DNA of 64,000 bases from Elusimicrobiota bacterium (GTDB lineage: Bacteria > Elusimicrobiota > Elusimicrobia > UBA1565): the NCBI GenBank assembly GCA_016196755.1, contig JACPXC010000010.1:7802-71801 (forward strand), in the 5' to 3' direction. Positions 17,315 through 20,352 of this stretch are shown here, piece after piece. The notes beneath the pieces were generated by a model. The model ran no database searches. It was not told where the DNA came from and was given only the letters and a program-made list of their open reading frames with translations. Made by a program: the position numbers and the translations under genes. Position 1 is the stretch's first letter. Each line of letters opens with the position of its first letter.

Positions 17315-18094
17315 CTAGCCTCGAGAAAGCAAAGGCCGCGCCGCCAGCGACTCGAGCAGACGATCGACCTGCCCGCGGTGCGAGAGGACGAACTGCGCCG
17401 CCGAGGTCTTCACTTGGCCGATGCGGATCGTCAAGGCTCTCGGCCCCAGCGTGCGGAAGCCTTCCTCGTCGGTGAGGTCGTCTCCGATGAAGAGGCCCTT
17501 CCAGCCTCCCGTCAGACGCTTGCGGATGGCGTCCAGGGCGTGCCCCTTGTCCCAAGGCACGGTGGAGCGGATGTCGAAGGTCTTCTTTCCACGGAGGATC
17601 CGGTATCTGTCGCGCAGACCCATGAACCTGGCTCGCACCCGGTCGGCGAGGCGCCGCACGTAGCGCTTGGGCACCTTGCGGTAGTGGACGGCCAGGCCCA
17701 GGCGCTTGGGCTCGACGACCGCGCCGGGAATCCCCTTGAGGTCTTCCTCCAACTGGCGCCAGATCGACGCGTCCAACCTGCCGACGTGGGGATGGGTCCA
17801 TTCAAGCCCCGGGCCGTGGATCTGCAGGCCATGATTGCCGGCGTAATAGACGCCTCGGAGCCCGACCCGGCGCTTGATGTCCTCCAGCGCGCGGCCGCTC
17901 AGGACCGCCACCCGGATGTCCGGCCTCGAGATCAAGGCGCGCAGCAGCCGTCGCGTGCCCGGCGTCAGCACCGCGTCTTCCGGAGACCCGACGAGATCCG
18001 AGAGCGTTCCGTCGAAGTCAAGGCCCAGGAGGATGCGCGAGCTGAGAAAGTCGTCTTTCCCCAGGCGATCCTGAACGCGGGTCCAGTCCTTCAC
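17315..18094 (-). CDS. otsB: Trehalose-6-phosphate phosphatase (HAD superfamily)
   Basis: HAD motif I (LLGLDFDGTLS) and C-terminal GDDLTDEEGF motif. GTG start at 18094 overlaps the otsA stop (GTGA). The 525-aa track ORF is an artefactual upstream extension. Confidence 0.8.
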   Translation of the reverse strand: MKDWTRVQDRLGKDDFLSSRILLGLDFDGTLSDLVGSPEDAVLTPGTRRLLRALISRPDIRVAVLSGRALEDIKRRVGLRGVYYAGNHGLQIHGPGLEWTHPHVGRLDASIWRQLEEDLKGIPGAVVEPKRLGLAVHYRKVPKRYVRRLADRVRARFMGLRDRYRILRGKKTFDIRSTVPWDKGHALDAIRKRLTGGWKGLFIGDDLTDEEGFRTLGPRALTIRIGQVKTSAAQFVLSHRGQVDRLLESLAARPLLSRG

Positions 18095-20352
18095 GGCGCG
18101 GGCGCTTCCGGCCGCGCGGCGACGCGGATATGGGTCAACTCCGTGATGAGCTTCCCGGCCCATCGGTAGATGTTGTTCTCCTTCACGACCTCCCGGAGCC
18201 GCCTCATGCGGGTGCGCCGCTCCTCGGCGGGCATCTCCAAGGCGTAGCGGATAGCCTCGGCCGCCTCGTCGATGTCGTAGGGGTTCACGATCAGGGCGTC
18301 GGAGAGTTCTCGCGAGGCGCCGGCGAACAGGCTGAGCACGAGCGCCCCGTCCTCGTCCTCGCGGGCCGCGACGAACTCCTTGGCCACCAGGTTCATGCCG
18401 TCGGACAGCGAGGTCACGAGGCAGACATCGGCCGCCTTGTAATACGGGTCGATCTGCTGGTGGTTGTGGTGCTTCTTGAGATAGACGATCGGGCGCCAGT
18501 CGGAGGCCTTGAACTTCCAGTTGATGCGGTCGGCCTCGGCGTCGGTCTCGGCGAGGAACTGGTTGTAGCGCTTGATGTGGGTGCGGCTGGGCGCGCCGAT
18601 CTGCACGAACGTGAAGCGGCCCTTGTACTGGGGATACTTGTCGAGGAAGCGCTCGACGGCGCGAAAGCGCTCGAGGATGCCCTTGGTGTAGTCCACGCGG
18701 TCGACGCCGACCGCCAGGAACTCCGCGGTCGTATGGAGTTCCTTGAGCAGCGCGGCTTTGTCCACCTTCGCGGCGGATTCGCCCGCCTGCTCTTTCTCGG
18801 GGCCCGGGAAGTGCACGCTGATCGGGAACGGCCTGACCGCCGTCAGATGCCCTTCCCTGATGACCGAGAAGCGCTCCCGGTCGATGCGGCACTCCAAGGT
18901 GCGGTCGACGGTCTCCAGGAAGTTATTGCAATGGAACTGGGTGTGGAAGCCCATCAGATCGGCGCCGAGCATGCCGTCGACGAGCTCGGTCTGCCACGGG
19001 CAGATGCCGAAAGACTCCGGGTTAGGCCACGGGATGTGCCAGAAGAATGCGATGCGCGCATCCGGCCGCTTCTCCTTGATCATCCGGGGCAAGACGGCGA
19101 AATGGTAGTCCTGGACCAGGACGCAAGGGGACTCCTGGTCGGCGATCTCGTCGAGGACGGCGTCGGCGAACTTCCGGTTGGCGGCGCAGTACTGCGTCCA
19201 GTCCTCCGGACGGAAATCCGGCCGGACGTGGGCGTTGTGGCAGAGCGGCCAAAGGCCCTCGTTGGAAAAGCCGTAGTAGTAGCCGCTCTCTTCCTCGGCG
19301 CTCAACGCGACGCGGCGCAGCGTGTAATGGGGGTCCTCCGGGGGGACCCGGACGCGGCCGCGCTCGTCGACGAAGTCCCAGTCCGCATCGCCCGCGCCGT
19401 GCGCGATCCAGGTCCCGCCGCAGGCGCGCATGAGCGGGTCGAGCGCGGTCACCACACCGCCGGCGGGAACGATCACCTCGACCTCGCGGCCCTTATGGCG
19501 GTGCATGTACGGCTCGCGGTTCGAGACGATGACCAGCGGCTGGCCGCCGAGCTTCGTCTTGACGTGGTCCTTGAGCCGCTCGGGAGTCCAGAGCGACTCG
19601 GAGATCTGACGCAGCCGCGCCTCTTCCTCGGCGGCGGACTTGGCGACCGTGAGGTGCCTGGCGAAGGTCTTGACCTCCTTGGCCATCGGCCCGAAGAGGG
19701 CGCCGCGCGGCAAGGGCGCGGGATTGGATCCGCCGGCACGCTGATGGCGCATCCACTCCGCCATCTGCGCCACCGGAGCGAGGATGTCCCAGCGGACGAT
19801 GAAGAGGGTGACCAGCGCCAGGAGGAACACCTGCATCAGGAGGCGCAAGAAGTTCGTTCTCCAGACCTCCCGGAGCCGAGCGTGGACATGCGACGTGCCT
19901 TGGAGAAGGATCAGGGAGCCCGTCACGGCGCCCTCTTCCGAGTGGAGGGGGGAGGCGTAGGCGTGATGCTCGCCCGCCTTCAGCTTGACGAACTTCGCGA
20001 CGGACAGTTCGGACCCCAGGGTTTCGGAGGCCAGGAGCATGACCGATTCGGCTTCATCTATCAGCGCCGGGGTGGCCGCGAGCACCGTGCCCTCGGCGTC
20101 GGTGATGGCGATGCCGGTCAGGCGCCCGCGGTTGCTGAACCTGCCGACGAACTTCTCGATGCGCTTGCGCTCGCGCGGGAACGAGGCGGGGTCGACCGCG
20201 GTGTCGATGCTCTCGGCGAGGATCGCGCTCCGGCGCTCGAGGTCCTCGACCAGGCGCCCCCGCTCGGCGCGCATCTGGAAGTACGTCGAGCCTGCCGCGA
20301 CGAGGGCGGCGGTCAAGGCGAGAGCGACGATGAGTCGGGCGGTGATTCGCAT
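18091..20352 (-). CDS. otsA: Alpha,alpha-trehalose-phosphate synthase (GT20) with ~280-aa N-terminal extension: signal-anchor TM, ~150-aa extracytoplasmic domain, second TM, HAMP-like segment
   Basis: GT20 core from ~aa 285 ([11 protein letters not shown]...GFFWHIPWP...LVNPYD). N-terminal [21 protein letters not shown] (TM1) ... [21 protein letters not shown] (TM2) followed by [14 protein letters not shown] (HAMP AS1-like). Confidence 0.8.

Follow-up and report, generated by a model that had tools for sequence, protein, structure and literature searches.

A putative trehalose-6-phosphate synthase with a membrane-spanning sensor-type module in Elusimicrobiota and other uncultured bacteria

Synthesis of compatible solutes in bacteria is usually described as being controlled by transcription or by bulk ionic effects on soluble enzymes. 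Here we describe a trehalose gene cluster in a 64,000-nucleotide stretch of contig JACPXC010000010.1 (positions 7,802 to 71,801 of the forward strand) from the Elusimicrobiota bacterium assembly GCA_016196755.1; this whole stretch is referred to below as the window. The cluster comprises a gene of the trehalose-6-phosphate synthase (OtsA) type, termed sensor-otsA, in which the GT20 catalytic domain is preceded by a long N-terminal module with two predicted transmembrane (TM) segments, followed by the genes otsB and treS and preceded by an nhaA-I riboswitch aptamer (Table 1). A first-pass annotation, made from the letters of the window without database searches, had read the product of sensor-otsA as an OtsA enzyme fused to a sensor-like module of TM, periplasmic domain, TM and HAMP-like linker. 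In this work, profile searches, structure models and a comparison with related loci were applied to the gene, its relatives and its surroundings.

The sensor-otsA gene and its GT20 domain

The sensor-otsA open reading frame (ORF) lies on the minus strand at exactly the coordinates first assigned to it, and it cannot begin earlier, since an in-frame TAA read from the sequence stands two codons 5' of the ATG. The Pfam GT20 match starts only at aa 273, so that 272 residues precede it, close to the roughly 280 aa given in the first-pass annotation; because the OtsA-type enzymes in the PDB are mostly 455-534 aa long (one has 693 aa), as compared with 753 aa here, this extra length is regarded as genuine. 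A search of 5.8 billion proteins with the window protein as the query returned an identical protein in an Elusimicrobia metagenome-assembled genome (MAG) together with over 100 homologs of full length (about 750 aa, 57-87% identity, query coverage 99-100%). When 118 homologs of full length (735-830 aa, identity 57-87%) are aligned, the match begins at Met1, with the start consensus MRIT.RLI, and conservation extends from residue 1 onward without reaching background level. The mean column identity is 0.67 at aa 1-25, 0.41-0.71 in the middle of the extension, and 0.76-0.79 at aa 176-275, so that the segment with the second TM helix (TM2), the HAMP-like unit and the linker is about as conserved as the enzyme itself (about 0.8-0.9). 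In addition, 80 related loci from about 10 phyla, all of them in MAGs, were examined; in all of these the N-terminal match continues in frame into GT20, except where contigs end early and for a few fragmented tblastn matches to GT20.

The pattern of conservation indicates that the N-terminal extension is translated. A downstream start, at M26 or near residue 270, would make the extension an annotation artefact and the product an ordinary soluble OtsA. Such an artefact could be suspected from the absence of a recognizable Shine-Dalgarno sequence ahead of the ATG, and from a sigma-70 promoter scan of positions 15500-20700 in which no promoter was found and terminator-like sites occurred at chance level. 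We nevertheless regard it as highly improbable and, because of the conservation data, as effectively excluded: the protein sequence of residues 1-272 is conserved, beginning with Met1, in the 118 homologs and at the 80 loci across phyla, with GT20 in frame, which contradicts the downstream start that the first-pass annotation had itself raised. Moreover, both AlphaFold2 (AF2) models described below give the region a confident sensor-type structure (overall predicted local distance difference test score, pLDDT, of about 84), and the riboswitch aptamer ends 14 nt from this ATG, a spacing of 13-14 nt being found in the relatives L002 and L007.

The catalytic part of the protein is complete. The Pfam Glyco_transf_20 profile scores 400.9 bits (cutoff 32.5), with aa 273-740 corresponding to profile positions 3-472 of 473; the first-pass annotation had thus correctly placed the GT20 core after the N-terminal module. 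The best solved relative is OtsA of M. thermoresistibile (5jij, E 1e-82), and the domain is 36% identical to E. coli OtsA. Eleven E. coli residues that form the active site or bind the substrates (R9, G22, Y76, W85, D130, H154, R262, K267, R300, D361 and E369) all align to identical residues in the window protein (R279, G299, Y359, W368, D415, H439, R552, K557, R590, D651 and E659, respectively), and all 11 are invariant in 44 family members. With its catalytic and substrate-binding residues intact, the OtsA domain is predicted to be catalytically competent. The protein resembles the soluble OtsA enzymes (E. coli 1gz5/1uqu and M. thermoresistibile 5jij) in its complete GT-B type GT20 domain, in these active-site residues and in the adjacency of its gene to otsB. 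It differs from them in length and in the 270-aa membrane sensor module, the classical OtsA being soluble.

The cutoffs of the NCBIfam OtsA equivalogs are not reached (TIGR02400, 441.3 against 564.85; PRK14501, 494.7 against 634), and the family is therefore considered a distinct, divergent GT20 subfamily. We infer trehalose-6-phosphate as the product from the active-site residues and the neighboring otsB, rather than from equivalog status. These sub-cutoff scores, together with a match to the GgpS model (299 bits), could also point to a different phosphorylated glycoside as the product, e.g., glucosylglycerol-phosphate as made by GgpS. This alternative appears very unlikely: the scores of the OtsA models are well above that of the GgpS model, the residues R9, Y76 and R300 of E. 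coli OtsA, which bind glucose-6-phosphate, are conserved, a Trehalose_PPase gene overlaps the stop codon of sensor-otsA, and treS or TreT genes occur in the clusters. Cyanobacterial GgpS is itself a salt-activated compatible-solute synthase of the GT20 family under ionic post-translational control, but it is soluble and reportedly regulated by electrostatic binding of nucleic acids, and not by a fused transmembrane sensor.

The cotranscription of sensor-otsA with otsB and treS that had been proposed in the first-pass annotation holds at the level of sequence. The GTG start codon of otsB (18094..18092) and the TGA stop codon of sensor-otsA (18093..18091) overlap as GTGA, and treS starts 3 nt past the otsB stop codon. 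Among the 80 loci, approximately 38 have an otsB homolog no more than about 250 nt past the end of the fused otsA, and 4 more have one elsewhere in the locus. A TreS homolog is present in approximately 9 loci, 5 of which have it downstream of otsA in the same orientation. In one Candidatus Sulfotelmatobacter locus, sensor-otsA belongs to a larger trehalose cluster in which it follows a gene for a DUF4118-HisKA_3 kinase and is itself followed by otsB and genes for a DUF5752 protein and TreT_GT1, with a gene for a MEDS-HisKA_3 kinase on the other side (L082, Table 1).

Table 1. Positions of the features discussed, in the window and in related loci (handles beginning with L; positions are those of each locus)
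Feature	Position	Strand	Evidence or remark
Window
nhaA-I riboswitch aptamer (Rfam RF03057; Li+-I / Na+-II class)	20367..20414	-	52.4 bits, gathering score 37
Fused sensor-otsA ORF	18091..20352	-	753 aa, ATG start at 20352
TM1 / signal-anchor helix (about aa 4-26)	20275..20343	-	Hydropathy peak, also present in the average of 118 homologs
Predicted PDC/sCache-fold extracytoplasmic domain (about aa 27-165)	19858..20274	-	Foldseek and family profile
TM2 (about aa 166-188; hydrophobic core 168-186)	19789..19857	-	Hydropathy, family-conserved
HAMP-like helix-connector-helix (about aa 189-238)	19639..19788	-	AF2, periodicity and hhalign
Conserved helical linker (aa 239-270)	19543..19638	-	Connects AS2 to the first GT20 beta-strand
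GT20/OtsA catalytic domain (aa 271-753 and stop codon)	18091..19542	-	Pfam GT20, E 1e-119
otsB (trehalose-6-phosphate phosphatase)	17315..18094	-	Pfam Trehalose_PPase, E 1.4e-35
treS (trehalose synthase / maltose alpha-D-glucosyltransferase-like GH13)	15683..17311	-	Pfam Alpha-amylase, E 1e-98, and Malt_amylase_C
MFS-like gene	20480..22402	-	640 aa
Housekeeping envelope cluster	22435..27131	-	CTP-synthase-like ORF named from sequence only
tgt	48232-49356		
Low-GC stretch	49458..51614	-	GC 0.59-0.62
SpoIID-like gene	52134-53300		
tRNA gene	58042..58113	+	Rfam, 71 bits
Related loci
L006, U-type nhaA-I copy with terminator	5874-6000		
L055, U-type nhaA-I copy with terminator	5875-6000		
L016, U-type nhaA-I copy with terminator	5893-6000		
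L017, U-type nhaA-I copy with terminator	5443-5528		
L047, U-type nhaA-I copy with terminator	5395-5502		
L075, U-type nhaA-I copy with terminator	1900-2027		
L005, Na_H_Exchanger gene	2919-4088		
L029, Na_H_Exchanger gene	1396-2580		
L033, similar ORF of about 390 aa	4797-5963		
L011, Na_Ca_ex gene and GGDEF gene	3689-4894 and 5036-6004		
L015, CitMHS-type transporter gene	4223-6004		
L009, small ORF	4414-4614		
L018, small ORF	5769-5966		
L010, small ORF	414-587		
L002, second nhaA-I riboswitch	11386-11431	-	
L047, c-di-GMP-I riboswitch	733-810	+	
L082, sensor-otsA cluster of Candidatus Sulfotelmatobacter	5629-12204		

Topology and fold of the N-terminal module

In a Kyte-Doolittle profile (19-aa window, threshold of 1.6), the hydropathy of the window protein exceeds the threshold at two places only, in windows starting at aa 1-8 and 166-177, and the same peaks are present in the 118-homolog average; the top peak (2.48) belongs to TM2. 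An AF2 model of aa 1-275, for which 37 sequences were aligned (mean pLDDT of 84.7), consists of a continuous helix 2-52 that contains TM1, an alpha/beta core at 62-152, a helix 154-205 that contains TM2, a loop at 206-219, and helices 220-253 and 257-267. A model of the full-length protein (pLDDT of 84.3) agrees with it and places the linker helices at 217-253 and 257-268. The modeling suggested in the first-pass annotation thus gave an alpha/beta core between two long helices, one formed by TM1 and a stalk and the other by a stalk, TM2 and AS1, and then a connector of 14 residues and a further long helix. Since GT20 enzymes use nucleotide sugars, the GT20 domain is placed in the cytoplasm, and the two TM segments then turn residues 27-165, approximately, outward.

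The PDC fold between the two TM helices, a central antiparallel sheet with flanking helices that is preceded by a long helix at the N-terminal side, is modeled at a pLDDT of about 90. When the aa 1-275 model was compared with the PDB by Foldseek, the top match was an integrative model of full-length WalK (270 columns, E 4e-9), followed by the extracytoplasmic PDC/sCache domains of WalK, KinD, CitA, DctB and DcuS (probability 1.0, E 3e-6 to 1e-3), with target-normalized TM-scores to PDC sensor domains of up to 0.72. The sequence profile of the family independently matches the WalK extracellular domain (E 4.7e-5). According to these models and profiles, the protein is predicted to span the membrane twice, with a PDC/sCache-fold domain outside, which bears out the TM-periplasmic domain-TM layout of the first-pass annotation and specifies a fold of the Cache-like kind for which it had suggested a search. 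The extracytoplasmic domain contains the near-invariant residues E30, R40, R41, G80, D85, P135 and G145, and N74-R77 are also conserved.

TM2 is followed by two predicted helices joined by a connector of approximately 12-14 residues, in the position and with the shape of a HAMP unit. The first helix (AS1, aa 190-206) contains the invariant P193 and is followed by the near-invariant G207, the connector occupies aa 208-219, and the second helix (AS2) starts at aa 220. In both helices (190-206 and 218-238), the periodicity of hydrophobic residues is strongest at 3.5 residues. In an hhalign comparison with seven Pfam-verified HAMP domains, 51 columns were aligned with P193 and G207 in register with the HAMP Pro and Gly (E 4.8e-5, probability only 68%), and 16 of 37 family N-termini match Pfam HAMP weakly at E<=1 (best E 2e-4). 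Among the PDB sequences, the profile of the TM2-HAMP-linker segment matched only AS1 of the Aer HAMP domain, and not significantly (E 0.28). In the linker that leads into GT20, W255, T256 and L260 are invariant and the mean column identity (0.78-0.79) equals that of the catalytic domain.

The module as a whole resembles the sensor kinases WalK (YycG), CitA, DcuS and KinD, which share with it the order of TM1, extracytoplasmic PDC/sCache domain, TM2 and helix-connector-helix. In contrast to the WalK-type kinases, sensor-otsA contains neither DHp/CA kinase domains nor cytoplasmic PAS domains, GT20 taking their place; the sequence identity is about 14%, and the HAMP-like unit of sensor-otsA falls below the Pfam threshold. 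The first 100 residues, approximately, which comprise TM1 and the beginning of the periplasmic domain, also match weakly to YtjB/Smp (Pfam SMP_2, PF10144) in 18 of 37 members (best E 1e-5, below the gathering cutoff); YtjB, whose function is unknown, is a small membrane protein that stands alone and, unlike sensor-otsA, has no enzyme domain. Some homologs bear the JGI name 'trehalose-6-phosphate synthase/uncharacterized membrane protein affecting hemolysin expression'.

Distribution of the fusion and the upstream riboswitch

The sensor-GT20 architecture is not rare. A scan of one genome per species with the conserved linker motif as the search pattern identified the N-terminal module in at least 209 genomes, where the protein is annotated plainly as trehalose-6-phosphate synthase. 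The search for this architecture in related MAGs that the first-pass annotation had recommended was thus productive. The hosts include Elusimicrobia, Verrucomicrobia, Acidobacteriota/Terriglobia, Nitrospirota, Ignavibacteriota, Bacteroidota, Omnitrophica and Eisenbacteria, as well as one Gammaproteobacteria bin and one Planctomycetia bin. A homolog search seeded with an acidobacterial member and directed at cultured hosts returned metagenomic or 'Candidatus Sulfotelmatobacter' entries only. Among 1.84 billion library representatives, 297 clusters are matched by the N-terminal profile at E<=1e-30. Ten long matches to this profile were compared with Pfam: eight have GT20 or a truncated GT20, and two have no family at all. 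Since every Pfam-positive long match (8 of 8) is a GT20 protein, the sensor module appears to be dedicated to the trehalose-6-phosphate synthase. One homolog of 913 aa (P0132) has about 170 additional N-terminal residues, and the N-terminal profile matches two stretches of it, which may reflect a partial duplication of the sensor module.

No published description of a sensor, Cache or HAMP fusion to GT20 was found in the full-text literature searched, in agreement with the first-pass annotation, which had considered the architecture undescribed. The parts are all of known kinds and the link between the riboswitch and otsA has already been published; it is the combination that is new as a described entity.

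The nhaA-I aptamer upstream of sensor-otsA had been missed in the first-pass annotation. The match covers the Rfam model from position 1 to 55, its full length (E 1.8e-7 for the whole window), and the aptamer has the stems P1 and P2, the invariant loop UCGGGCC and the invariant GGUCGGGCCGCC core. Of the 80 loci, 23 have an nhaA-I riboswitch upstream of the fused otsA and in the same orientation, in each case above the gathering score; these are 20 of the 26 Elusimicrobia loci, two loci of Verrucomicrobia and one of Omnitrophica. Their alignment contains compensatory changes and covariation in P1 and in the outer P2 pairs. A search for degenerate cores (up to three mismatches) in the 57 loci without the riboswitch gave scattered chance matches, none of which fell in the leader of the fused gene.

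The nhaA-I class corresponds to the Li+-I riboswitches, which are gene ON switches; the rare Na+-II variants, which switch ON for Na+, have a C in place of U at the first P2-loop position, and a C-to-U mutant of a Na+-II RNA broadened its response to Li+, Na+ and NH4+ (White et al. 2022, PMC9646797). In the window copy, which matches the full Rfam model, and in all 23 relatives this nucleotide is U, as in the Li+-I constructs (GGUCGGGCC) and unlike the Na+-II riboswitch of D. propionicus (AGCCGGGCC). The P1 junction of the window copy (GGGUCC...GGAGG) resembles the Na+-II example. Terminator platforms have been reported only for C-type Na+-II variants in Deltaproteobacteria (PMC9646797), whereas here, in relatives from Elusimicrobia and Omnitrophica, they accompany U-type aptamers: the 3' half of P2 can form an alternative pairing with a GGAUGGC that lies downstream and precedes a U-run (L006, L055, L016, L017, L047 and L075). 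No terminator is present in the window or in L002 and L007. In the supplementary table of the same study, 16 of 944 representatives are located upstream of 'otsA', and its authors offer, as speculation, an influence of Li+ on trehalose metabolism or a role in Na+ or osmotic regulation; they do not mention a sensor module on the OtsA encoded downstream (PMC9646797).

In several relatives, further genes are inserted between the riboswitch and the fused otsA (Table 1): a Na_H_Exchanger gene in two loci, a similar ORF in a third, a Na_Ca_ex gene together with a GGDEF gene in a fourth, and a CitMHS-type transporter gene in a fifth. Genes for cation transporters in this position are a signature of a cation/salt-stress operon, and suggest that in some relatives sensor-otsA belongs to a riboswitch-controlled cation-stress operon.

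In three other loci, the riboswitch is separated from the fused otsA by a small ORF of 57-66 aa, which encodes a peptide with a single TM segment and no Pfam family; its C-terminus, ...LKHVFKLF, is conserved in L009 and L018. A second nhaA-I riboswitch in the close relative L002, on the opposite strand and about 1 kb beyond treS, presumably serves another, divergent gene. The Omnitrophica relative L047 has a c-di-GMP-I riboswitch about 4.7 kb upstream of sensor-otsA.

Proposed function, alternatives and genomic surroundings

Based on the architecture of the protein and the context of its gene, we consider it probable that sensor-otsA encodes a transmembrane receptor with trehalose-6-phosphate synthesis as its output, the expression of which is controlled by cations and which acts in the response to salt or osmotic stress. 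The protein would be a dimer, by analogy with other HAMP receptors. A cue in the envelope (a ligand, or the ionic, osmotic or membrane state) would be relayed via TM2, the HAMP-like unit and the linker and would alter how the GT-B catalytic domains are arranged or how they close, tuning trehalose-6-phosphate synthesis within seconds, and the riboswitch would set the amount of the enzyme when cytoplasmic Li+ or Na+ rises. Such a two-tier salt/osmotic-stress response would lead to the compatible solute trehalose. More tentatively, although as a serious possibility, we propose a class of receptor enzymes, not described before, in which a Cache/HAMP-type transmitter directly gates a GT-B glycosyltransferase, so that an envelope or ionic cue would switch on trehalose synthesis without a phosphorelay or a second messenger, and which in Elusimicrobia is placed under a Li+/Na+ riboswitch and would thus combine outside and inside inputs. 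In the HAMP-linked receptor enzymes (the mycobacterial adenylyl cyclase Rv3645, HAMP-GGDEF and HAMP-PP2C proteins), the transmitter is likewise joined to the catalytic domain via a short conserved helical linker and without a phosphorelay. The outputs of these proteins are signaling enzymes (second messengers, phosphatases), whereas the output here would be biosynthetic, a compatible-solute precursor.

A number of observations weigh against the receptor interpretation. Pfam HAMP (PF00672, gathering score of 25 bits) is not matched in the window protein or in the segment itself even at E<=10; two family members tested alongside reach 14-15 bits, as compared with 36-58 bits for six of seven reference HAMP controls and 24.1 bits for the seventh, PhoQ. 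In the hhalign register, the canonical HAMP Glu falls opposite D218/L219, and the family thus lacks that hallmark. (The invariant E226 had been considered as the counterpart of this Glu and was dropped because of the same register.) In view of the missing Pfam match and the low hhalign probability, aa 189-238 are called a divergent HAMP-like transmitter, the term 'HAMP-like' of the first-pass annotation having the right strength. The gathering scores for Pfam Cache are not reached by the window protein either (sCache_3_2, 22.6 bits against 28.4). Some homologs do pass Cache cutoffs (dCache_3 in P0047, 31.8 against 25.7; PF17203 precomputed for several acidobacterial members). No ligand or pocket can be inferred for the extracytoplasmic domain, and no small-molecule ligand is known for WalK, to which its fold is closest. 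The AF2 models are monomers, dimerization being assumed by analogy, and the control of enzyme activity by the N-terminal module is read from the architecture. With regard to expression, the riboswitch is lineage-restricted, being absent from the acidobacterial, nitrospiral and Bacteroidota members, and is therefore not integral to the function of the protein. The window copy has neither a terminator nor a Shine-Dalgarno sequence in its 14-nt spacer, and shows no obvious sequestration of a ribosome-binding site. A minimum free energy pairing of the 5' half and loop of P2 with codons 5-9 was rejected as a candidate switch (z of -1.6, not significant, and absent in L007).

Several of these points would suit a module that serves only as a membrane anchor or scaffold, conveying no signal and placing synthesis at the inner membrane face for local protection or product hand-off: there is no doubt about the two TM helices, no site for a ligand could be identified, the HAMP signal is weak, and the outer extracytoplasmic part is the least conserved region (about 0.41-0.53). 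We consider a passive anchor unlikely, because a folded PDC domain of 140 aa, a heptad-periodic helix-connector-helix and an invariant linker motif are not required in a tether. Moreover, the TM2-HAMP-linker segment is conserved like the catalytic core across phyla, the extracytoplasmic domain retains its set of near-invariant residues, and all 275 aa superimpose on the sensing and transmission module of WalK. Less probable still is that regulation is essentially transcriptional or translational via the riboswitch, with the sensor module being a relic that has no current regulatory role. The riboswitch does belong to a validated ON-switch class and is tightly linked to the gene in Elusimicrobia, but in the 57 loci without an upstream riboswitch the module is still intact, and an identity of 29-61% across phyla with invariant linker residues would be unexpected for a relic.

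If the receptor interpretation is correct, metabolic enzymes would join the known outputs of Cache/HAMP modules (kinases, chemoreceptors, cyclases and phosphatases), and envelope stress would be translated rapidly into the production of osmoprotectant. Members of the family abound in uncultured bacteria of soil, peat and groundwater (Elusimicrobiota, Acidobacteriota/Sulfotelmatobacter, Verrucomicrobiota and Nitrospirota), habitats in which the survival of drying and salt stress is ecologically relevant. Na+/H+ antiporter genes are often found in these operons, which points to a salt-stress regulon. The link to the riboswitch provides a concrete and testable candidate answer to the question, raised by White et al. 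2022, of why Li+-I-type riboswitches precede trehalose genes. For genome annotation, the name 'trehalose-6-phosphate synthase' conceals the predicted sensor module, including in the homologs that are 57-87% identical.

The gene upstream of the riboswitch encodes a protein whose C-terminal part (about 400 aa) is MFS-like (32.8 bits, just below the cutoff) and whose first 230 residues, approximately, are of low complexity and rich in Ala, Pro and Ser; it is not a conserved neighbor, having no matches in the 80 loci. Beyond it lies a housekeeping envelope cluster with genes for an LptB-like ABC ATPase, an LptA-like protein, KdsA (DAHP_synth_1 family) and, as named from sequence only, a CTP-synthase-like ORF. 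The window also contains a tRNA gene and, between tgt and a SpoIID-like gene, a stretch of low GC content as compared with approximately 0.70 elsewhere in the window. This stretch encodes a 500-aa Fic-domain protein and a 197-aa ORF without a Pfam family, and may have been acquired horizontally.

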